A stretch of 11,146 nucleotides of DNA from a bacterium (GTDB lineage: Bacteria > Zhuqueibacterota > Zhuqueibacteria > Oceanimicrobiales > Oceanimicrobiaceae): positions 1-11,146 of the forward strand of contig JBHHXN010000169.1 in NCBI GenBank assembly GCA_046757025.1, given 5' to 3'. The position numbers and the translations under genes are program-made. The notes beneath the pieces were generated by a model that saw nothing but the letters and a program-made list of their open reading frames with translations, was not told the origin of the DNA and did not search any database. This document shows, piece after piece, positions 2-10,696 of the stretch (its first letter is position 1; every line of letters starts with the position of its first letter).

Positions 2-1621
2 GCTGGACTTTTGTGCTGGCGCTTCCAGTTTTCGGTAAACTTCGTAACGGTCCACCATCATCATGCCATAGCGGTCCATGGCAGAGCCAGCCCAGGAAAC
101 AAGCACTTGATTACCCTGATCGTTGGGAACGTCTCTCACGGCATTGATGTGCGGGAACGCGTTGGCGGTGGAGGCATCTGTAATCGATATGACGTCGTTC
201 GCCGGCGTGGTGAACGAATTTGGACCATCGGGTGGGGAAAGAGCAATCAGCCACTCTGAGCTGTTTTCGAACCAGATCAGGTTGCCGGCCGCGTCCACGG
301 TCATGTCAGCCCGACTGCTGGTTGATCCAGATCCAGAAATGTCTTCGAAAATCATCGTGCTGCCACCAGTAGCGAGATCATCGATTTTGTGAATCGAGTT
401 CCATGGATTACCGCCAGGGGGACTACCTGCAGCGTTGGAGAAATAGATTCTATCATCTGTGTTGGTGGTCAGGTCGTCGCCACGATCCAAACCAAATCCA
501 ATCGGACGTCCATTGCCGTTATCAAATCCCACCGGAACAGTCCATTGGCGATCGGCACGAGTTACAGGAAGTGTTCCTGAGATATCATACCTTTCAACTG
601 CCAGTCCAGGATTAATTCCGTCAACCTCTCGACCCCTTCTCAAGGCAACATACATATATCCACTATCATCGATGACAATATCTTTAATGAATATCGCATT
701 TGTATCACCTGCAGTTGTGTCAGGTTCAAAATCAGCAATCAGTTCAAAATTAGCTGGATCGAATGTGGAATCTGCACCTATTGCAGCCCTGACTATTGTG
801 TTTGCCAAGCCCCAATAAATGGTGCGATTAGCTCCTGTACCAACTACATCAATGCCATGTCCCTTTTTCGAAGAATCATCTGAAGTAGTCACAACTGCCA
901 AAGAACTTGCATCTAAGCTCGGTGCAATAGTATAAAGTTTGCTTAACGGATCCAGGCGGTCGGAATAATACAATTGCCCGTCATCATCACTGGTGATCAT
1001 ATAAAGCCGTCCGAGACCGCCATGATCGCGAACGTCAAATGGCGAAAAGCGACTCAAATTCGGTTCGACCTGCTGAAAGCCGGTGCCGTCGGCAAAGAAG
1101 TTCAGCGGACCGCGTTTCAGGCCGCCGCCGCCGCCGTTACCGCCGATGGGATGGCCAAAATTGGGAGCGGCTGGGTTGCGGATGGAAGTACCGCCGCGGG
1201 TAAAAATCACCGTACCCGACCGGGCATAAATAATATCGAAACCGTCATGACCTTTGGAGTCGTTTGCGGTCACTGTAAAGGTATAGTCACCTTCGGGTAC
1301 TGGATTGCCATCGTCACCAATACCAGACCAGGTCACCATGCTCAAGCCCTGCGGATGGGGGCCCGCGTCGATGGTGGCTACGATGTTATTGCCAGCGTCT
1401 GAAACGGTGATGACGACGGAGGTGGCATTTTCGTTCAAGCGAAATACAATGCCCACACCGGGGGTACCGTCGCTTAGGTCGCCGTCAAATGGGGCGCCGC
1501 CCGGATTGACTACTTTGATATCGGATGCAAATACGTTTGCATAAACATGGCTCGAGGTAGCTGTAACGAAGAAACCCATGATGACGATTGTTACAGCAAA
1601 AAGTAATAACTTTTTACTCAT
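2..1621 (-). CDS. Secreted multidomain protein, 3'-truncated by the window edge (>=540 aa): signal peptide, FlgD-Ig-like domain, probable beta-propeller region, start of an FN3/Ig-like 'DVPNDQG' module
   Basis: Translated by hand; it is absent from the ORF track because there is no stop in the window. ATG at 1621 follows AGGAGG (ATTAGGAGGGCAATTATG) and the frame is open to position 2. It reads MSKKLLLFAVTIVIMGFFVTATSSHVYA-NVFASDIKV...GIVFRLNENATSVVITVSDAGNNIVATIDAGPHPQGLSMVTWSGIGDDGNPVPEGDYTFTVTA (FlgD-Ig pattern). Blade-like motifs follow (MITSDDDGQLYYSD, DIVIDDSGYMYVAL, DMTVDAAGNLIWFE), then PHINAVRDVPNDQGNQVLVSW...YEVYRK. Confidence 0.9.
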   Translation of the reverse strand, partial: MSKKLLLFAVTIVIMGFFVTATSSHVYANVFASDIKVVNPGGAPFDGDLSDGTPGVGIVFRLNENATSVVITVSDAGNNIVATIDAGPHPQGLSMVTWSGIGDDGNPVPEGDYTFTVTANDSKGHDGFDIIYARSGTVIFTRGGTSIRNPAAPNFGHPIGGNGGGGGLKRGPLNFFADGTGFQQVEPNLSRFSPFDVRDHGGLGRLYMITSDDDGQLYYSDRLDPLSKLYTIAPSLDASSLAVVTTSDDSSKKGHGIDVVGTGANRTIYWGLANTIVRAAIGADSTFDPANFELIADFEPDTTAGDTNAIFIKDIVIDDSGYMYVALRRGREVDGINPGLAVERYDISGTLPVTRADRQWTVPVGFDNGNGRPIGFGLDRGDDLTTNTDDRIYFSNAAGSPPGGNPWNSIHKIDDLATGGSTMIFEDISGSGSTSSRADMTVDAAGNLIWFENSSEWLIALSPPDGPNSFTTPANDVISITDASTANAFPHINAVRDVPNDQGNQVLVSWAGSAMDRYGMMMVDRYEVYRKLEAPAQKSS

Positions 1622-1789: not shown

Positions 1790-2842
1790 TTAATATTTGA
1801 TGGCAAAAGAAACGAATTTGACGTTTTTTAACCGACCGTAGTCTGCCCAGCCAAAATCAAATTTGAGATTGGCTCCCACCACATCGTATTTCAAACCTAC
1901 GCCAAAGGTCGCCCCTTGTTCGCTGTCGGCGAGAAACAGCGATTTGTAGCCACCGCGCAAAAAGAGCACGTTTTTAAATCCCAGCTCGATGCCGCCGTTC
2001 ACCGACTCGTTGTTGTCATTGGGCTGCAAACCGTCAGCCACCGTCAACACGGACATGTTTTCATTGTCCACCAATTTCCAGGCAATGCCAAAGCGGAAGT
2101 TCAAGGGCATGTCAAAACTTTCGGTTTTGAACTGAGAGGGGACTTCGTCCACCGCCCCCGGTTCGTTAATGGGGGCTTCGTTAAATTTCAGATCCCGGCC
2201 GTCCAGTCTCATCTTCGAGCCAAAATTGGAAATGGAGGCGCCAATTCTTAGATTTTTAAACGGCGTGTCGTACATAACTCCGATATCAAAAGCCCCGCCG
2301 CGGGCGGTTTCGTTGAATATGCTTTCCTGAATATACTTTCCAGTGATGCCGATGGAAAAGCGGTCGGTGAGATTTTTCGAAAAGGTGACGCCCAGCGAAA
2401 TGGAATTGGCGTCCCACACCTGGCCGGTGCCTTCCGGATTGCTGACGGTGCGGACCACCTGTTCCGGCGTGCGCAGGGAAATGACATGCATACCAAAGGA
2501 GCCGATATCCCCGGCGTTAAGTGAAAACGCGGCAAAATCGTACTGGATGTCTGCCAGCCATTCCGCGTGGTTGAAGGTGGCTTCACCGGCACCGCCGATA
2601 CGGGCTAAACCGGCGGGATTCCAATAGACCGAAAGAATGTCGTCCGAAAGGGCAGTGTAAGCGCCGCCCATGGCAATGGGGCGCGCGCCGGCGCCGATTT
2701 TTAAGAAAGTGGCCGCGGTCGTGCCCACCCGGTTTATGGAAGTCACATTCTGCGGATCGGGACCATCCTGGGCATTGGCCTGGTTAAACAAAATAAGGGT
2801 TGTAACCAAAATTAAAAACAATTTTAGATTTAACTTACTCAT
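1790..2842 (-). CDS. PorV/PorQ (UPF0164)-family outer-membrane beta-barrel protein, FadL-like superfamily
   Basis: 350 aa with a signal peptide (…QANA-QD). It has the family N-terminal signature GTTAATFLKIGAGARPIAMGGAYTALSDDILSVYWNPAGLA, amphipathic beta-strands and a C-terminal aromatic residue (VSFAIKY). Confidence 0.88.
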   Translation of the reverse strand: MSKLNLKLFLILVTTLILFNQANAQDGPDPQNVTSINRVGTTAATFLKIGAGARPIAMGGAYTALSDDILSVYWNPAGLARIGGAGEATFNHAEWLADIQYDFAAFSLNAGDIGSFGMHVISLRTPEQVVRTVSNPEGTGQVWDANSISLGVTFSKNLTDRFSIGITGKYIQESIFNETARGGAFDIGVMYDTPFKNLRIGASISNFGSKMRLDGRDLKFNEAPINEPGAVDEVPSQFKTESFDMPLNFRFGIAWKLVDNENMSVLTVADGLQPNDNNESVNGGIELGFKNVLFLRGGYKSLFLADSEQGATFGVGLKYDVVGANLKFDFGWADYGRLKNVKFVSFAIKY

Positions 2843-2919
2843 TAGTCGTCTCTCTCTTTAGAAAGTTAGTAGCTGGCAATTCTAATCAAGGGTAGTGGTT
2901 CAAATAATATAGTTTTATC

Positions 2920-3333
2920 TTAAATTAATGATTGCGCAATGGATTTAAATGCTTCGATTTCTTTAAAATCTTCTTTAATGATGTTGTAGGCCAATTCATG
3001 GTCGATTTTCAAATAATCGTGAACCAAAATATTTCGATAGCCGGTCCATTTTTGAAGTGTTGCCGAAAGGTCCTCACTGAGATAGTCGTGTTCTTGCAAG
3101 ATTTGAAATATTTCTCGAAAACTTCCTGGCGAACCCAGATTTTGATCGGCTATTAAATGATTACCAAGATCGATCAAACATTCTGCCATTAAATGCAAAT
3201 ATCTTTCTGCCAGGTCATGTAGAGCGGCATTTTTCAGAAATTCTTGTTTTTTAAATTTCCTAAACGCTCGAAGTTTGGTAAAATAATCTTCTAATGGGTT
3301 CAAGCGACTCTGTAAAACTTCTCGGGATACCAA
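2920..3333 (-). CDS. hepT: HEPN-domain RNase toxin (DUF86/HepT-like)
   Basis: 137 aa. It contains ERYLHLMAECLIDLGNHLI and the HEPN R-X4-H motif with downstream Tyr (RNILVHDY). TTG start preceded by GGGAG (CGGGAGTAAAACTTG). It lies directly downstream of an MNT gene. Confidence 0.9.
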   Translation of the reverse strand: MVSREVLQSRLNPLEDYFTKLRAFRKFKKQEFLKNAALHDLAERYLHLMAECLIDLGNHLIADQNLGSPGSFREIFQILQEHDYLSEDLSATLQKWTGYRNILVHDYLKIDHELAYNIIKEDFKEIEAFKSIAQSLI

Positions 3334-3775
3334 GTTTTACTCCCGTATCAGTCCTTCTTTTGGCTGCCAAAATATGATATTCACGCAGTGGTTTCGTGTC
3401 GCAAAATTCCTTGATGGTTCTGGTGGTAAATTCAACTCGTTTCTCAGGATTTTTGCAATTTAGTAAAATGCCATGCTTGAGTACTTCATATTTTAGCAGC
3501 AACGAACTATGATTGAGAATGACTAAATCAACCGAGTCAAATTTCACTGCATCCATTACTAAGCCCATCATCCGAATACGGAATTGCCAATCAGCGCGAA
3601 AATCTACTGAATCGCTAACATGAATGGCCACGTCCACATCGCTGATTTTTGTGAATGGCCCTTTTGACAGGGAGCCAAACGCATAGGCAAAGTCAACTTC
3701 CTCGATGGATTGAAATAGCTCGGACAAAATTTGGATTATTTGTTGTTTTGTTTTTATCAATTTTATTGACTCCAC
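3260..3775 (-). CDS. mntA: Minimal nucleotidyltransferase antitoxin (MntA-like, Pol-beta superfamily)
   Basis: Exact GSX10DXD motif (GS-LSKGPFTKIS-DVD) plus VDLVILN and EVLKHG. The start may be GTG 3775 or the in-frame TTG at 3760, which has GGAG about 9 nt upstream. Confidence 0.88.
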   Translation of the reverse strand: MESIKLIKTKQQIIQILSELFQSIEEVDFAYAFGSLSKGPFTKISDVDVAIHVSDSVDFRADWQFRIRMMGLVMDAVKFDSVDLVILNHSSLLLKYEVLKHGILLNCKNPEKRVEFTTRTIKEFCDTKPLREYHILAAKRRTDTGVKLGIPRSFTESLEPIRRLFYQTSSV

Positions 3776-3801
3776 AACTAATCGCGGCCAATTTTTTGCT
3801 C

Positions 3802-3818
3802 AAGCAGCAACCCTGCTT
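3802..3818. other. Small stem-loop at the stop codon of the 1197-aa gene
   Basis: AAGCAG-CAACC-CTGCTT, a 6-bp stem. There is no U-tract on the minus (sense) strand, so it is not a convincing terminator. Confidence 0.3.
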
Positions 3819-6800
3819 TATTTGATCAATGCTAACCGCCCAATTTTTGTGCCCACTCCGGGCGCCTCCACGTGATAAATGTAAACGCCGTAAGCGGTTT
3901 CCTGAGATTCAAAGGTCAGCAGATCCCAGACGGCAAAGCTCAAATTGTCGTCCTTTTCGATGGTATCCACCAACTCGCCGGCGATGGTGTAAATTCGAAT
4001 GGTGCATTCAGGCGGCAGATTTCGGAACTCCACACGCCGGTCATTGCGGATGCCCTGCCGGAAAGTCAATTCGGATTTGCTGAACGCAACGTAGGGATTC
4101 GGCACCACGATGACGTCGTCCAGGGCATTTTTAGCAATCTTGCTGTCAAATGAAACGGCCTGAGTGGTAAAAGTATATTTGTCGCCTTCCTCAAACGGCT
4201 TTTTCGAAAAAACCAAAAAGACGTCGCCGTCGCCGGGATAAATGGGATCGTCAAACGTGACCAACGAATCTGCCGAGCCGTCGGCGGTTTTCAGGGTGTC
4301 GCTGGGGGGTGCAAATTTGATCTGGTAGGTGGTTTCCAGCCGGGTGTTTGGGCGAATGATGACCACGGTTTCCTGATAATCCCAGCGGAAGTTTTTCAGC
4401 CCCAGCACGTTTTCCTGGATAAAGAAATCGACGCGGTCGCCGGTGGCGGTGTCGATGATCTTGAACGGCGCCTTGACCTGGGGCGCGGCGCCCAGCTTGA
4501 TGCTGGAGTCGGCCGGCGCGGTCAAACTGCCGTCGCTGGCAGTGTCATAACCGGCGAAATGAAATTCAAAATCCGTGTCGATGGGTTTGGGGCTGCCCAC
4601 CCTGGCCAGACCCAATTCGATCACTCTCAAATTGGTATTGGAATTTTTAATTTTAAAGCCGCTGCGCGCCGGATCCACGGCGATGGGTTCGTCTCTCACG
4701 AATAAACGCATGCCGTCAAAAACGGCGTTATCATCTTCGTTGTTGAGCGAGGTGCTGTTTGCCACCGGTTTGATCAAAAAAGTGATGTTAAAGGTTTCAC
4801 CGGATGGCAGATCGCCTTGGGTTACCCCGCGGATTTTTCCGGATTCCAGATCGATCTGATACCGTAACGGATCAACTTCGACCCCCGCCTGATCCGTGAC
4901 AGTCACGGAACCTTCCACCAGATCGCAGCAGGAAATTAAATTCACAAAAATCGTATCTCTGGCTACGAAAGAAAGTGTTTGCGGCAGTAAATCGATAACT
5001 GAGTAAGTCATCTGTTTGCTGCCATTGTCCAATTCAACCTCCTCGAAAACTACCTCGTATTTTTTGCCATCGACCACTTCAAAAGGATCTAAAAATTGTA
5101 CTTTAACCGAGCCGGTGGCGTTACCGATTTCGCGAATGGCGAAGTTGCCTTCGGTGTCGGCCAGACCCGGTTCGACGGTACCCACAGCCAGCGCCCCCGG
5201 CACCGCAAGCGCGGTATTGATATCGAAAGTGAACTCGCGGGTGAGGGCGTCCTGGTCGATGGAGCGCTGACTTTCCGATGGCGCGATTTCGGCTTTGACG
5301 TCGCCGTGATCATACGAGGTGACGGCATAAAAATAGGTGACGCCGTTTGTGACGTTGGAATCCACATACGCGTGCACCAGTCCGGTATTGGTGCCTAAAT
5401 TGTAGCGAATGCCGCCGCGGCCGGCATATTCTATATCAGAAAAGCCAGAGAATTCGTTTATCAAATCAAATTGAGCCGGAACGCCGCCCTGTGAATACGG
5501 CACCGAGAGAAACGGATTGCCCTTGCCGTCGGTGATGGTTTTGGTGTCGTTAAAGCTGAAGTCCCGGCTGCGATAGATGCGATAGCCTTCAAAATCGAAT
5601 CCTTTTTTGGGCTCATCGGGATTGGCGCGTGCCACGAATTGATCGAAGGAGGTTTCGGCTCGGGTGTCCCAATAGAGCGTGACTTTGCCGTCGTCCGGCA
5701 CCGCCACTAAATTGGGTTTCAGCGGCGGTTGGGCAAAGCGGTAATCCGACTCGAAAACCTGCTGGGAGATCTCCGCGTTTTGCAGCAATTCGTTGATATC
5801 CACCCCTAAAATCAGGGCGATGGAAAAACGCTGGCTTTCACCCGGCTCCAGGCTGAAGGGGCCGGAGCCGTAGATGAAAACATTATCAGCCTGCTGTTCA
5901 ATTTCAGGAGCCGGATCCTCCGGGCGCTGGTTGGGTGTGGACATGAGCGACCACATGAGCTCGTCGTTTTTTGGTCGATTGTTGCCGCCAAAAATAATGG
6001 CGTTGAAACTGGTTAATCCCAGTTGATCGGATTCGGCGATATCCAGGAATCCAAAGTTGGGTTCACCGCCGTGGAAGCGCATGCCTTCCAGACGGGTTTC
6101 TGAAATGGGTTCTCCAACATCGAGAATGGCGTTACCATTCAGATCCAGGAAATAGAGCTGAGTGGGTTTGCCATCGCCTTCGCCAAAATCGCCGGTACCG
6201 GGAATGCCGTCCACACCGAGATCATCGAATTCCACGTCCCAGTCGCCGTCTTCGTCACCCGACCAGTGCAATTTAGGAGGTCCGTAAATGCCCACGCCGT
6301 CAAATACTTCTGTACCAGCATCGTTAAACGGGCTCTCGTCGATGAGGCCGTCGTTGTCGTTATCCTGGCCATCGAAATTGATGCCCGGGCTCTCTAAAAA
6401 TCGGTATCCGAAAACGCCCGGAATACGGCCGCCATCGCCTCGGTTGTCGTTATCGGATGCAAAGAGCATGTTGCGGGTGTCGAAGGGAAAATTTTCGTTG
6501 AACGCGGAAATAAAGTCCGCATTGTCGTCGGAGAAGTCATTGGGTCCGCCCACGTGCGGGTCGCCAAACATGCCGAGATAAATTGTGTCGAGCTTTTTTG
6601 GGCTGACATTGGTGATGGTATAGACCAGAAAAATTATGTCTTCGGCGAGGGCGTTGTTGAATTGAAAGATGCGCACCTGCAGCTCCAGACCCAGGCCCCT
6701 TTTGGTGGAGTCGTCCGGAAAAGGGTAATACTGAAATTCCGCGTTGTTGAAATCATCCATGACGTAGAAAACCTCTTCGTCCGGCGTGGTAGCGTCGTCG

Positions 6801-7411
6801 CCTAGAAAGGCCGGCCAGACATATCGTCCGAGGGTTTCATTGAAATATCTTTGCGGCCAACTGTCCGGTTTTCCGTCCCGGTCTTCATCCAGGTCGTTAA
6901 AAGTGGCCATCTCATTTGAATTGGGATCGGAGAAACCGACCTTGGGCAGCCAGCCCCACTTTTCGGCGGTGCCGGGACGAAAGTCGCCGTCGGCAACTTG
7001 GATAAAGCCATCGTTTACAATGTGAATCATGCTGTCCGGTATGAAGGCATGCGGCACTTCTGCGGCCACCAGCGGTCCAAACTCATAAGCATATCCCAGT
7101 CCGATGCCTTTGGGCCAGAACAAATCCGCGTCGGTAATGTCCGCGTCAGGTGTGGAAATGGAGCCCATGTTAGTGAGCAGCACTTTGATCTCATTGCCGG
7201 AGATGGTGGTGAATTTCTGCTTCTCATGAATTTCGTCATTTTGCAGGGCGGCGTTGAACGATTTGTAAAATTCTTTCATGATGGCACGACGTTCAGCAGC
7301 CGGCAGGGTTTTTAATTCCGGATTTTTATTTTTTTGACTGAACAAACTCGTGGTCATTACTAACAACAGCAGTAAAATAATTCTTGTAAGGGTGGCTAAA
7401 ATTTTTATCAT
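3818..7411 (-). CDS. Large secreted/surface protein (1197 aa) with Dx[DN]xDG-type Ca-binding loops, an FN3 domain and a T9SS-like C-terminal sorting domain; function unknown
   Basis: Signal peptide MIKILATLTRIILLLLLVMTTSLFS-Q and RBS AAGGA. Acidic loops DEDRDGKPD, DGQDNDNDGLIDE, DEDGDWD, DLNGNAILD. FN3 pattern PPLKPNLVAVPDDGKVTLYWD…FEGYRIYRS…YVDSNVTNGVTYFYAVTSYD (~5730-5305). CTD-like tail VVPNPY…FRNLPPECTIRIYTIAGELV…WDL…GVYIYHV…KIGRLALIK (~4120-3818). Confidence 0.85.
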   Translation of the reverse strand: MIKILATLTRIILLLLLVMTTSLFSQKNKNPELKTLPAAERRAIMKEFYKSFNAALQNDEIHEKQKFTTISGNEIKVLLTNMGSISTPDADITDADLFWPKGIGLGYAYEFGPLVAAEVPHAFIPDSMIHIVNDGFIQVADGDFRPGTAEKWGWLPKVGFSDPNSNEMATFNDLDEDRDGKPDSWPQRYFNETLGRYVWPAFLGDDATTPDEEVFYVMDDFNNAEFQYYPFPDDSTKRGLGLELQVRIFQFNNALAEDIIFLVYTITNVSPKKLDTIYLGMFGDPHVGGPNDFSDDNADFISAFNENFPFDTRNMLFASDNDNRGDGGRIPGVFGYRFLESPGINFDGQDNDNDGLIDESPFNDAGTEVFDGVGIYGPPKLHWSGDEDGDWDVEFDDLGVDGIPGTGDFGEGDGKPTQLYFLDLNGNAILDVGEPISETRLEGMRFHGGEPNFGFLDIAESDQLGLTSFNAIIFGGNNRPKNDELMWSLMSTPNQRPEDPAPEIEQQADNVFIYGSGPFSLEPGESQRFSIALILGVDINELLQNAEISQQVFESDYRFAQPPLKPNLVAVPDDGKVTLYWDTRAETSFDQFVARANPDEPKKGFDFEGYRIYRSRDFSFNDTKTITDGKGNPFLSVPYSQGGVPAQFDLINEFSGFSDIEYAGRGGIRYNLGTNTGLVHAYVDSNVTNGVTYFYAVTSYDHGDVKAEIAPSESQRSIDQDALTREFTFDINTALAVPGALAVGTVEPGLADTEGNFAIREIGNATGSVKVQFLDPFEVVDGKKYEVVFEEVELDNGSKQMTYSVIDLLPQTLSFVARDTIFVNLISCCDLVEGSVTVTDQAGVEVDPLRYQIDLESGKIRGVTQGDLPSGETFNITFLIKPVANSTSLNNEDDNAVFDGMRLFVRDEPIAVDPARSGFKIKNSNTNLRVIELGLARVGSPKPIDTDFEFHFAGYDTASDGSLTAPADSSIKLGAAPQVKAPFKIIDTATGDRVDFFIQENVLGLKNFRWDYQETVVIIRPNTRLETTYQIKFAPPSDTLKTADGSADSLVTFDDPIYPGDGDVFLVFSKKPFEEGDKYTFTTQAVSFDSKIAKNALDDVIVVPNPYVAFSKSELTFRQGIRNDRRVEFRNLPPECTIRIYTIAGELVDTIEKDDNLSFAVWDLLTFESQETAYGVYIYHVEAPGVGTKIGRLALIK

Positions 7412-7567
7412 TTTTTGTTTCCTTATAAATTAATTCTTTCTCAAGGTATGGAAAAGTTACGTTTCAAGTCTCTTCATAAATCCGGGTAAACAGGGGGCGC
7501 TTTTTTGATTAACTTTTCAAAAACCGTTTTACTGCAGAGCACTGGCTTATCAAATTACCACTTTGAT

Positions 7568-7650
7568 TTTAACGCAAAGGCCGCTGACAGCGTAGAGAAT
7601 TTCGCAGAGAGACAACTTTCTCTCTGCGTCCTCAGCGCCTCTGCGTTAAA
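7568..7650. repeat. Imperfect palindromic (REP/MITE-like) element built from CGCAGAG-like units
   Basis: Inner stem CGCAGAGAGA (7603-7612) / TCTCTCTGCG (7619-7628) is a perfect 10 bp. Outer arms TTTAACGCAAAGGCCGCTGA (7568-7587) / TCAGCGCCTCTGCGTTAAA (7632-7650) have one mismatch and one bulge. Confidence 0.75.
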
Positions 7651-7781
7651 TGAAAAGGTTCGAATGTGTAAATAACGCCTCGATCACTCAAATTTTGGAA
7701 TATTAATTGCTTAAAACCGAATTCATCAACGTGATTTTATTTATTTTTGTTAAATTTATCTAAGTGCGAATCTTGAGCAGA

Positions 7782-10601
7782 TTAAAAATCGAACGACATG
7801 CCCCAGCGAATTTCGCGCGGTGCCCCCAGCCAGTCTTCTCTCTGGTAAAAATTATCCAGAAAACTGATCGGGAAAAAATTTTCCGGATTTCTTTCAATCT
7901 GCCTTCGGACGTTATTGAACAGAGTCGGGTTGATGGTCTCATTTAAGGAAGTCAAAGAACGTCCGGTGTTGGTGTGTACAAAGCGTTCGTTGATAAAATC
8001 AAACACGTTTTCGACCTGCATGAAAATGGAAAAGCGCACATTTTTTTGTCGGAAAAATTTTTCTAATTTGATATCGAGGTTTTTGGTCAGTGGACGGCGC
8101 GCACTGCGTACTTCAAATTCCACCGGTTGCAAAGAAGAGGGCAATGATGGCGTGTACGGCGTACCGGTCCAAACGTTGCCGATGGCGCTGAATGCCCAGT
8201 TGTTGGCTTTGCTCAGCGTTAAAGTCGCGTTTAACGTGTGCGTACGGTCAAATGACAGCGGTACAAACGATTGCTCGCTGTCCCGGCCGGAACGGGTGTT
8301 GATGGCCAGTCTTAACGGGTTATCGAAAGCGCCTTCGCCCACCTGAAAGGTATAGTCCAGCGAGCCGGAAAGAATCCCGCCTTGCGAGCGGCGTTTTAAC
8401 AACGAAATGGAAAAGCCTTTCACATTGGCGTAGCTGATGTTGGTGACGACGTTGAATTCTTTTTGTCCTCCCACCTCGCCGGCAATGACTCTTCGGCTTT
8501 CGATGAGGTTGGTGACGTCTTTATAAAAGATGGTGAAATCAGCCTTGAAATTATCGGTAAACTGCTGCTGCAGTCCCATTTCATACTGGATGCTTCTTTG
8601 CGGTTCGAGATTGGCGTTGCCAAAAGTCGGCGTGCGGGTGAAGTTAAAATCCTCAAATCGCGGGTTGCGGTAAATCTGGCTGAATCTCGGATTCTGATAA
8701 AAATGGCCGTAGGAAAAGCGAATAATTCCTCGAGAGGTGATGGGAAAGCTCAAACTCAGTCTGGGCGCCAGTCGGTGCTTGGGGGAAGATTCCCGCAGGT
8801 TTTCGCTCTTTTCCACGCCTTCGTCCACCGTGCCCACCAGGTCGGGATTGTAGAGTGCGCGTGAGTCCAGGAACTCGTAGCGCAGACCCAAATTCAGAAT
8901 AAATGATTTCGAAAGCTCGATTTTATCTAAAAAGTAAGCGGCGGCCTGAATGGGCTCGTGTTTGAAAAACTGGTAGTCGGTGAAATTTTCATCCAGTTCC
9001 GGGAACGGAATGCAGGGGCTGTCCGCCCCGAATGCTTCGATGCAGGGCTGCGGTTGATTATCCGGATTCAAATCATAGATCAGCGTGTACGATTCGGATT
9101 CCAGTCGGTGTAACTGCAATTCCGCGCCAAACTTAAGCTCGTGGGCCGGATGAATCTGATTGACCACATCGAGCTTGGCAATGATGGAACGCGTCTTGGA
9201 AAAGGAGCGGTCGAGACTGGTGCCGCCGGCTAAATAATCGGTGGGAGCAATCAGACTGTTAGTGATAAGACTGTCAAACACCCGCACATAGCGTTTATCA
9301 AAGGGATCCTCAAAAGCATGAGTGCGGTTGTGTGTGAATGCCAGACCGAACTTTAAGGTGTAAAACATTTTGTCGTTTAAGGTGTGCGTGAGGCCAAGAG
9401 AGTGGTTCAAGCCGTTGCTGAATGTTTTTGGTCGGCCGTCCGGATTGAAACGATAGCGGCGGAAATTGCCGCTGCTGAAGCGTTCGCCGTCGTCCATCAC
9501 CAAATCGTAGTGCACTTTTATTTTGGGATTGGGTTTCCAGGTGAGTTTGGCCGTAGCGTTGATGCTTTCACTGGTAACCATAGGTACGATTTCACGGTCG
9601 CCATCGGCCTGAAAAGCCTCGCCCGAAGCGCCCAGAGGATCGATGAAAAATCGATCTTCCGAAAACACAAGGATTTCATCGCGATTGTACACGCGCATGC
9701 CTTTGAGATGTCCGTTGTCTTTTTCAAACACGCCGGAAGTAAAAAAGGTTACTTTTTTGCCGAGCAGCGGCACGGGACCGCTCAGGGTCCATTCGGCCCG
9801 GCTGTGGTTCAACATGTCGATTTCATCGATTTTGTAGAAAATGTCGTCGCGGGTGCTGAAGTTGCCGCCGGTGTAGGTGCGAAACGAAGCGTGATATTTC
9901 GGGCCGCCGTCTTTGGTGACAAAATTGATCACGCCGCTGAGGGCGTTACCGTATTCTGCGCTGAATGTGCCGGTGGAAACCGACACCTCTTCCACGGCGT
10001 TGGTGGCGATGCCAACGCCTTGCAAATTGCTCAGGGGATTGTTGATAGAAATTCCGTTGACCTGATAGGCGACTTCGTTGGAGCGCCCGCCGCGTATGTG
10101 CAGGGCGCCGGAATTGTCCTGTACGATGCCGGCCTGCAGCGCAATCACGTCCCGGATTTGATCCACGGGCAGGGCGTGTATCTGCTCAGAGGTCACCGCC
10201 ACATGGGTGTTGGTGAGATCTTCTCGCACCAGCGGATTACGCTCACCATAGACTTCGATGGCGGCCATTTCAACCGCGCTCTGGTTCAGAGCCTGGTCCA
10301 CACGGGTGGTAAAATCCACATTCACCCGAACCTCCCGCACGCGCACCGTTTGATAACCGATAAATGAAATGTTGAGGGTGTACAACCCCGGGGGAATGTT
10401 TAATATGGTGTAATGCCCGTCGATATCGGTTGCCGCCCCAAAGCTGGTGCCTTCCAGTTGCACGTTGGTGCCGGGTAAACCGTCGCCAGTCTGCGCATCG
10501 GTGATGCGGCCGGCTATCTTGCCGGTGGTGCCGCTAAAGGCGGTGGCTGTAAAAACGAGCAAAATAAAAATAGAAAGTGTCGTGAACCTGAAAAATCGCA
10601 T
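7782..10601 (-). CDS. TonB-dependent outer-membrane receptor with an N-terminal carboxypeptidase-regulatory-like domain
   Basis: 939 aa with a signal peptide. N-terminal GKIAGRITDAQTGDGLPGTNVQLEGT…ATDIDGHYTILNIPPGLYTLNISFIGY. Plug motifs LHIRGGRSNEVAYQVNG and GTFSAEYGNALSGVINFVTK. Barrel motifs LNLGLRYE, PRLSLSF, GNANLEPQRSIQYEMG, VENVFD, and C-terminal PREIRWGMSFDF ending in Phe. Confidence 0.95.
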   Translation of the reverse strand: MRFFRFTTLSIFILLVFTATAFSGTTGKIAGRITDAQTGDGLPGTNVQLEGTSFGAATDIDGHYTILNIPPGLYTLNISFIGYQTVRVREVRVNVDFTTRVDQALNQSAVEMAAIEVYGERNPLVREDLTNTHVAVTSEQIHALPVDQIRDVIALQAGIVQDNSGALHIRGGRSNEVAYQVNGISINNPLSNLQGVGIATNAVEEVSVSTGTFSAEYGNALSGVINFVTKDGGPKYHASFRTYTGGNFSTRDDIFYKIDEIDMLNHSRAEWTLSGPVPLLGKKVTFFTSGVFEKDNGHLKGMRVYNRDEILVFSEDRFFIDPLGASGEAFQADGDREIVPMVTSESINATAKLTWKPNPKIKVHYDLVMDDGERFSSGNFRRYRFNPDGRPKTFSNGLNHSLGLTHTLNDKMFYTLKFGLAFTHNRTHAFEDPFDKRYVRVFDSLITNSLIAPTDYLAGGTSLDRSFSKTRSIIAKLDVVNQIHPAHELKFGAELQLHRLESESYTLIYDLNPDNQPQPCIEAFGADSPCIPFPELDENFTDYQFFKHEPIQAAAYFLDKIELSKSFILNLGLRYEFLDSRALYNPDLVGTVDEGVEKSENLRESSPKHRLAPRLSLSFPITSRGIIRFSYGHFYQNPRFSQIYRNPRFEDFNFTRTPTFGNANLEPQRSIQYEMGLQQQFTDNFKADFTIFYKDVTNLIESRRVIAGEVGGQKEFNVVTNISYANVKGFSISLLKRRSQGGILSGSLDYTFQVGEGAFDNPLRLAINTRSGRDSEQSFVPLSFDRTHTLNATLTLSKANNWAFSAIGNVWTGTPYTPSLPSSLQPVEFEVRSARRPLTKNLDIKLEKFFRQKNVRFSIFMQVENVFDFINERFVHTNTGRSLTSLNETINPTLFNNVRRQIERNPENFFPISFLDNFYQREDWLGAPREIRWGMSFDF

Positions 10602-10667: not shown

Positions 10668-10696
10668 AATATAAAATAAGTAAAGGACATTGTCAA
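10668..10696 (-). promoter_or_regulatory. Sigma70-type promoter for the TBDR operon
   Basis: Minus strand TTGACA (10696-10691), 17-nt spacer, TATATT (10673-10668), about 65 nt upstream of the ATG at 10601. Confidence 0.72.

Follow-up and report, generated by a model that had tools for sequence, protein, structure and literature searches.

The 11,146-nucleotide window analysed here is the whole of one contig (JBHHXN010000169.1; C169 below) of a 5.96-Mb, 95%-complete bacterial genome (GCA_046757025.1; G000 below). It encodes a TonB-dependent receptor (TBDR), a 1197-residue secreted protein (the cargo) that ends in a C-terminal domain (CTD) resembling those of type IX secretion systems (T9SS), and an outer-membrane barrel of the PorV family. 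This triad is a real and widespread outer-membrane module, and apparently an undescribed one. On balance, we think it reasonably probable that the three proteins form a single complex, in which the barrel would grip the cargo CTD, dock on the importer, and hold a substrate-capturing lid in place of SusD. Sequence evidence covers two of the three possible contacts: CTD with barrel, and barrel with TBDR.

No description of the triad was found in the literature searched (main texts, mostly of non-subscription papers). Term look-ups in the Caldithrix genome paper (PMC5317091) and in a review on glycoside transporters from 2026 (PMC13543919) gave no mention of it.

The three-gene unit across genomes

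An earlier note on this DNA (the original prediction) named four tests that could refute its reading; none did, and the reading is partly supported. The three genes are conserved together, and their paralogue trees agree. Cargo relatives were taken from three sources: genomes (the best 80 of 598); metagenomes (the best 80 of 488); and 140 regions cut around CTD matches in the window's phylum, five of which lacked a cargo scoring above 300 bits. With short-flanked loci excluded (28/80, 34/80, and 12/135, respectively), TBDR, cargo, and PorV were all present in 52/52, 46/46, and 120/123 loci, and likewise in 20/20 freshly fetched regions. Three gene orders occur: TBDR-cargo-PorV (206 loci); TBDR-PorV-cargo (11); and PorV-TBDR-cargo (1). 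Carriers include Ignavibacteria, Calditrichota, Fidelibacterota, and other lineages, and the closest named cargo homologues come from KSB1 and Calditrichia. A profile built on the cargo tail matches 58 of 61 genomes in the window's phylum, with up to 24 matches each, and 39 of 81 genomes in a second phylum (that of genome G061).

Linkage can be read from each member of the triad in turn. In four near-complete genomes, both partners are present for 63/70 triad-type CTDs, for 62/65 TBDRs of the triad subfamily, and for 60/63 PorV paralogues scoring 150-250 bits, versus 0/4 core PorV proteins and 0/24 weaker PorV paralogues. (This count leaves out 15 PorV rows below cut-off and TBDR rows consisting of the N-terminus only.) Trees for the TBDR, PorV, and tail agree across 51 triads (Spearman 0.83-0.86), one of the original 52 having been dropped for a frameshifted tail (L048). 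Well-supported splits are common to the tree pairs in 27/34, 24/34, and 15/25 cases, versus three at most in shuffles. Moreover, the five complete triads of the window genome form matching groups in all three trees. Such congruence is also expected from co-inheritance alone.

Some loci depart from the simple arrangement. Tandem triads or tandem cargo genes, some with a single shared PorV or TBDR, occur at L024, L047, L054, L075, L060, L061, and L221; pairing is therefore not always strictly one-to-one. In a variant order (L086:1187-7310, on G000:C114; L104:3394-13647), the subfamily TBDR and PorV genes are adjacent or are split by a small FlgD-Ig gene, a probable lipoprotein of 489-504 residues is encoded upstream, and the cargo gene lies farther off or is absent from the contig. 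Genes for PPIC-type (SurA-like) rotamases recur near triads (L082:12623-14437 onward; L088:2660-4267; L107:11069-12772; L044:3030-4718; L056:848-2719); perhaps these are dedicated folding helpers.

The identity of the TBDR stood up well. It has an N-terminal CarboxypepD-like domain followed by plug (PF07715) and barrel (PF00593) domains, both over cut-off; its model contains 22 barrel strands; its top Foldseek matches are TBDRs; and its C-terminal residue is Phe. It scores only 79 bits against the SusC/RagA model TIGR04056, for which the cut-off is 368, and it belongs to a triad-specific subfamily rather than to SusC. No SusD gene follows it, as had been noted: a scan with domain and family models found none in the window, and the genome's four SusD matches all lie on other contigs.

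The third protein is indeed a PorV-family barrel. It scores 210 bits against NF033709 (cut-off 90), exceeds the cut-off for PF19572, and matches the Flavobacterium johnsoniae PorV by profile (E 1e-26). It falls below the equivalog cut-offs of core PorV, PorQ, PorV2, and BamG (79/250, 79/220, 69/325, and 23/250 bits, respectively). The genome's best PorV-family match, taken as core PorV, scores 303 bits and is encoded on contig C11; 17 PorV-family genes exceed the cut-off in all. Several other PorV-family paralogues without a TBDR adjoin proteins with atypical CTDs (G000 C3:32069-34585, C6:65568-67481, C132:3728-5810, and C11:36157-40575), which suggests a wider use of private CTD-barrel pairs.

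Probable contacts of the PorV-family barrel

The cargo tail had been called a T9SS-like CTD, and this description stands in part. Against the type A model Por_Secre_tail it scores 16.4 bits, below the cut-off of 23, and 32 of 71 homologous tails match that model at E 0.01 (best E 1e-4). Residues 1101-1195 are modelled as seven core strands plus one short strand, the pattern of a CTD-like β-sandwich and in keeping with the fold that had been expected for the last 100 or so residues. (These strands were read within the whole-cargo model; whole-model structure searches are filled by the N-terminal domain.) In the PDB, the triad CTD profile matches the CTDs of PorZ (E 8e-4) and PorU (E 8e-3) only. 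In the window genome it sets seven proteins apart from 113 domain matches, among which PorZ and PorU rank 8th and 10th; of these seven, one is encoded near a contig end and the other six upstream of a PorV paralogue. The tail represents a CTD subtype of its own rather than the standard type A. Incidentally, a 1398-residue protein with a low-scoring CTD match (L106), at one point guessed to be PorU, is a subtilase/FG-GAP protein.

Complex prediction placed the CTD on the co-encoded PorV paralogue, the interface that the original prediction expected, with a score of 0.91 in three runs; the best control scored 0.00. The runs share at least 88% of contacts, and the partner has a predicted local distance difference test score (pLDDT) of at least 80. 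The mark used is reached by 116/157 solved pairs and by 2/215 mismatched pairs. Alignments omitted L065 (ambiguous bases) along with a few near-duplicate or unpaired rows.

PorV-CTD-like complexes have been solved (PMC10994853), and the PDB holds several (PorV chains 6h3i, 8gl6, and related entries), so the prediction may be a memory of known structures. Co-variation was therefore computed separately. Regularised inverse covariance was scored over 278 pairs of tail and neighbouring barrel. Of the ten strongest residue pairs, eight lie wholly within the predicted interface, where 0.5 would be expected; of the strongest 40, 17 do so, where 2.1 would be expected and random pairing gave two. A tree-based test of co-change, run over all 32,857 CTD-PorV residue pairs, placed seven of its eight best pairs within the covariance top 11. 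Candidate contacts join cargo residues 1141, 1192, 1176, and 1190 with PorV residues 337, 126, 145, and 97. Besides the solved complexes, two features temper this result: of the 25 contacts predicted to be closest, 13 have covariance ranks below 4,000, and prediction and co-variation are not fully independent because 62 sequences are common to both. Taken together, the model and the co-variation indicate that the CTD very probably binds its co-encoded paralogue.

It is likely, at a somewhat lower level of confidence, that the CTD is kept uncleaved on the surface. Precedents for anchoring exist in the PorQ:PorZ and PorV:PorU pairs (PMC5562754, PMC10202324), and protection of a CTD from cleavage by a cognate PorV-like barrel has been hypothesised (PMC10202324). 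The resemblance of the triad CTD to those of PorZ and PorU was dropped as a strong argument for retention, because about 50 ordinary CTDs of the window genome also match the PorU model, and more strongly.

A competing explanation is that the paralogue serves only as a private shuttle: the cargo would leave SprA and then be processed or released, and the genes would stay linked through co-regulation, with no durable complex of the three proteins. PorV acts as a shuttle for cargos of type A (PMC5562754, PMC10994853), cargos with type B CTDs use co-encoded shuttles in specific pairs (PMC12618676), and PorU is present in the genome. However, there is co-variation between the linker helix of the CTD and the rest of the cargo (A742-F1088, F773-D1098, and A765-Y1079 fall within the top 40 intrachain pairs), and a loose, self-chosen linker motif precedes 75/135 ordinary CTDs versus 36/275 triad CTDs, a weak argument. 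Nor does a pure shuttle explain the compensatory pair described below. We regard this explanation as distinctly improbable.

That pair has one residue in each of the two barrels. TBDR F619 and PorV V189 rank first of 260,652 TBDR-PorV residue pairs (240 paired sequences; z 15.5, versus at most 9.5 for random pairings), and are first in 6/6 half-sets. Among the 240, the residue states are Tyr with Thr (126), His with Thr (17), and Phe with Val, Leu, Ile, or Ala (72); Tyr or His with Thr versus Phe with a hydrophobic residue is the pattern expected of a contact that is either hydrogen-bonded or hydrophobic. By residue alternation, both positions lie in the outward phase of their strands. A tree test with states binarised by hand (478 branches) counts 16 TBDR changes and 19 PorV changes, of which 13 on each side coincide in branch and direction. 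With automatic binarisation, 10 changes are shared out of 16 and 23, a result that none of 50,578 random pairs reaches, and each of the two columns has the other as its best partner. The states agree in 19 of 20 freshly fetched loci. Around the pair, 10 of 305 outward-facing residue pairs exceed z 4 (0.83 expected) versus 0 of 192 inward-facing pairs, and TBDR strands 11, 12, and 13 rank highest of the 22 for co-variation with PorV.

The claim of a contact between the barrels rests mainly on this one pair, and other observations count against it. The z-score stays at 10.4 when each TBDR is given the PorV of its nearest relative. In a multistate tree test the pair is only 53rd, with other pairs higher, and the neighbouring pairs are individually weak (ranks 369 to 43,668). 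Moreover, the first binarisation and the outward-facing patch were chosen after the data had been seen. With these points included, we consider a TBDR-PorV contact likely from the sequence co-variation, and the co-switching of F619 and V189 points to docking of one barrel on the other.

The cargo as a probable lid, and other explanations

The cargo was expected to be Sec-exported and not a lipoprotein, and its sequence reads accordingly as a signal peptide without Cys. A loose lipobox pattern occurs in 12 of 254 cargos, mostly within ordinary signal peptides, and a lipoprotein cargo was rejected. The protein has no Pfam match; its profile has 0 matches among PDB sequences; and in the protein atlas it falls in unnamed clusters only. 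Its model (pLDDT 86.7; predicted template modelling score 0.81) comprises a galactose-mutarotase-like β-supersandwich with acidic inserts (residues ~40-558), a helix, an Fn3-like domain (~565-745), variable β domains, and the CTD. A Foldseek search with the whole model gave no full-length match (best TM-score by query length, 0.17). Shorter cargos share the body: of 14 tested without the tail, 11 still score at least 24 bits against the profile.

The supersandwich alone is best matched by the N-terminal domains of glycoside hydrolase (GH) families 15, 94, and 116 (Z 20.2; root-mean-square deviation, rmsd, 3.2; 265 aligned residues). Enzymes of families GH15, GH65, GH94, and GH116 carry a helical catalytic barrel besides the N-terminal supersandwich. 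That barrel is absent from the cargo model, which has short helices only and continues with β domains, and there is no GH match in Pfam.

Gene context is informative for the paralogous loci. Their neighbours include LacI or hybrid two-component regulators; GH13, GH43, GH2, and GH94 enzymes; and proteins with CBM20, CBM9, CBM30, and CBM96 modules. One cargo core recurs beside differing sets of carbohydrate-active enzymes (CAZymes), as SusD does. The window's own orthogroup weighs on the other side: its neighbours are chiefly FG-GAP/CTD proteins and housekeeping genes, CAZymes are few, and a glycan substrate is therefore not apparent for this copy. Secreted proteins with FG-GAP repeats, several of which carry ordinary CTDs, repeatedly adjoin the orthogroup on either side and strand (L004, L005, L014, L017, L018, L022, L024, L025, L028, L033, and L038), and may point to the substrate.

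Direct evidence for a contact between TBDR and cargo was not obtained, with samples that are small for some 800,000 residue pairs. Co-variation over 215 triads gave a top z of 10.0 versus 10.5-11.9 for random pairing, and the best tree score over 232 triads was 7.5 versus 7.0 among 23,776 random pairs. The top reproducible pairs are not enriched in extracellular loops (13/40, versus a 41% share).

From fold and gene context, the most likely role for the cargo is that of a lid. The rival closest to it keeps the three-part complex and makes the cargo a surface enzyme (a supersandwich lyase, hydrolase, or epimerase) acting on a polymer beside the channel. Catalytic proteins share the fold too (GH174 fucanase 9k1g: Z 15.1, rmsd 3.9, 251 aligned residues; mutarotases: Z 12-15), which weighs against a lid, and across 232 cargos conservation reaches at least 98% at charged residues, both acidic and basic, that include E213, D220, R247, and E340. 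We nonetheless judge an enzyme unlikely, given the missing catalytic barrel of the best-matching families, the lack of a Pfam enzyme family, and the single core beside different CAZyme sets.

The lid reading leads to the following mechanism. Export of the cargo would use Sec at the inner membrane and SprA, which the genome encodes, at the outer membrane. The variant CTD would be received by the cargo's own PorV paralogue and not by the shared PorV, as complex prediction and co-variation suggest, and would likely remain uncut by PorU, as PorZ does on PorQ and PorU on PorV. The paralogue would pack within the membrane on TBDR strands 11-13, through the strands around V189, where the compensatory change is seen. 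The supersandwich would then bind a fragment of glycan or other polymer and hand it to the TBDR, a step suggested by fold and gene context.

The secretion apparatus of the host bears on a further alternative. The original prediction called for a search of the genome for sprA, porKLMN, and porU, with a mixed outcome. SprA, PorU, PorZ, and core PorV are encoded as separate genes, along with at least 150 ordinary CTD proteins. (The sprA gene, at L091:7371-11114 on G000:C139, adjoins lptF/lptG-like genes and a DUF5723 barrel gene.) GldM was not detected in the 95%-complete window genome or in four triad-rich relatives (G049, G031, G039, and G016) by a search that found it in 5 of 18 genomes and that divergent forms may escape. 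Among the other motor and ring components, the search covered GldN, which was detected neither in the window genome nor in any control genome. These five genomes thus have a T9SS with an unexplained energy source.

It could be, then, that the complex is real and does not serve ligand uptake: where the GldLM motor is absent, the TonB-coupled barrel would pull the PorV-cargo pair from SprA, or relay a signal. Besides the undetected GldM, the distribution is suggestive, with triad-type CTDs in 0/19 GldM-positive genomes versus 39/62 others among the 81 genomes of the second phylum, and SprA present in 21/21 genomes. However, this exclusion amounts to a single split between lineages; plug and barrel of the TBDR are normal; and the paralogous loci look like glycan loci. 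Moreover, the ordinary CTD cargos, at least 150 of them, and core PorV (0/4) have no linked TBDR, and therefore another energy source must exist anyway. We hold this explanation to be very improbable. Very improbable as well is that the paralogue anchors the cargo as an adhesin or a protein of the surface coat, beside a TBDR that is only co-inherited. Where type B CTD cargos have cognate barrels, they are adhesins, known or predicted (PMC12618676), and the triad cargo carries acidic loops and Fn3-like domains. Against this, 62/65 subfamily TBDRs keep both partners, their linkage persists through three gene orders, and co-variation ties the TBDR to the barrel.

The proposed uptake complex resembles several known systems in part. 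Like SusC/SusD (RagA/RagB) pairs and utilisomes in the polysaccharide utilization loci (PULs) of Bacteroidota, the triad encodes a TBDR with an N-terminal extension directly before a dedicated extracellular partner, is present in many paralogues per genome (up to 24 by triad-type CTD matches), and has paralogous loci near CAZymes and sugar regulators. It differs in its TBDR, far below the SusC cut-off; in its partner, β-rich with a Sec signal and a CTD, whereas SusD is a helical tetratricopeptide-repeat lipoprotein; and in its additional barrel. Lid movement has been shown for SusD (PMC13543919), whereas for the triad cargo a lid is only predicted.

PorZ:PorQ and PorU:PorV of Porphyromonas gingivalis likewise combine a PorV/PorQ-family barrel with a type A-like CTD cargo. 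Each of those pairs occurs once and does a housekeeping job in the secretion machine; the triad pair occurs in many locus-specific copies, co-evolves, and comes linked to a TBDR. In Flavobacterium johnsoniae, type B CTD cargo genes are followed by genes for cognate PorP/SprF barrels (PMC12618676), the same order as in the triad, whose barrel is instead of the PorV family, whose CTD is type A-like, and whose third partner is a TBDR. Finally, BamG is a 14-stranded barrel of the FadL/PorV family that packs on BamA and holds BamH above it (PMC12611786, PMC12578637). A comparable arrangement is predicted for the triad, with a TBDR as the large barrel in place of BamA, and with the surface protein held through a T9SS CTD instead of as a lipoprotein; the triad barrel itself is remote from the BamG model, as its score above indicates.

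On a wider proposal we are evenly divided: that in KSB1-like lineages, Calditrichota, Ignavibacteria, and Fidelibacterota polymer uptake relies chiefly not on SusC/SusD but on an undescribed complex of TBDR, private PorV-family barrel (docked on TBDR strands 11-13), and T9SS-secreted supersandwich lid, attached through a CTD subtype that evolves together with the barrel and present in 10-25 copies per genome, largely where SusD and GldM are undetected, with the CTD-barrel pairs as an addressing code that directs each lid to its own transporter. Suggestive of a Sus-like role is that, within the second phylum, triad-type CTDs occur in 0/14 genomes with at least six SusD matches, and 18/39 triad-CTD genomes have no SusD match. 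This exclusion follows the lineage split and is not independent evidence, and the window genome itself carries both triad and SusD.

If correct, the uptake complex would be a second, independently built answer to the problem solved by SusC/SusD. The lineages that would use it are abundant in sediment, marine, and wastewater settings and have many CAZymes and few SusD genes; their uptake loci would escape PUL predictors that require susC/susD. Type IX secretion would be tied directly to TonB-dependent import. Type A-like CTDs would be readable by cognate PorV paralogues, in contrast to the view that all type A CTDs use one PorV (PMC12618676). The co-varying residues, TBDR 619 with PorV 189 and the cargo-PorV set given above, would be the exact contact points.

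Layout of the window and inserted elements

Features of the window, with positions on the forward strand of the 11,146-nucleotide contig
Feature	Position	Strand	Remarks
TBDR, 939 residues	7782-10601	minus	Signal peptide, N-terminal extension, plug, 22-stranded barrel
Secreted cargo, 1197 residues	3818-7411	minus	Signal peptide without Cys, β-supersandwich, helix, Fn3-like domain, variable β domains, CTD
Last 112 residues of cargo: linker helix and triad-type CTD	3821-4156	minus	Predicted binder of co-encoded PorV paralogue
MntA adenylyltransferase antitoxin	3260-3775	minus	GSx10DxD motif found; inserted passenger
HepT RNase toxin of type VII toxin-antitoxin pair	2920-3333	minus	Rx4-6HxY motif found; inserted passenger
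PorV/PorQ-family barrel, 350 residues	1790-2842	minus	Triad-specific paralogue; differs from core PorV on contig C11
Codon for TBDR F619	8745-8747	minus	Barrel strand 12, periplasmic end; probably lipid-facing; co-varies with PorV V189
Codon for PorV V189 (165 in mature numbering)	2276-2278	minus	Probably lipid-facing; co-varies with TBDR F619
Sigma70-like promoter consensus, 11/12 matches	10668-10696	minus	5' of TBDR gene; consensus match only
Intergenic gap between TBDR and cargo genes, 370 bp	7412-7781		Holds genome-wide palindromic repeat; insertion outside conserved module

The original prediction described three co-oriented genes. The TBDR, cargo, and PorV genes do share one strand, but five genes are co-oriented, because mntA and hepT sit between cargo and PorV. 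This toxin-antitoxin pair and the repeat in the gap are insertions into a three-gene unit, and the pair is a passenger with respect to the mechanism set out above. Both proteins exceed their NCBIfam cut-offs (MntA NF047752, 78/60 bits; HepT NF047751, 119/60 bits), and their genes are lower in GC (0.35-0.40) than those of the TBDR and cargo (0.45-0.57). The insert recurs at just one of the close orthologous loci, L009 (L009:11591-12428), with 52% and 74% identity to the window pair; in 30/32 such loci the spacing of cargo and PorV is 1-172 bp. As called, the two reading frames overlap by about 74 bases, both in the window and in L009. Two further similar pairs occur in the genome, on C149 and C260.

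The gap between TBDR and cargo is 8-75 bp in 30/33 close orthologous loci. The repeat that enlarges it here (window 7500-7780) is palindromic, up to about 280 bp long, and has 59 blastn hits genome-wide, itself included, several of them at contig ends; its fold z-score is -2.4. It is probably an element like a repetitive extragenic palindrome (REP) or a miniature inverted-repeat transposable element (MITE). Another copy directly follows the PorV paralogue on C28. The one promoter of the original prediction corresponds to the consensus match tabulated above; a scan of the window for this consensus gave 20 sites, versus 13.2 in shuffles.

On the 3' side of PorV lies the gene for a FlgD-Ig protein, with its own promoter-like site. 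This gene (window 2-1621, with an N-terminal FlgD-Ig domain) is cut by the contig end, and relatives with 27-29% identity occur near three orthologous triads (L028, L029, and L021).

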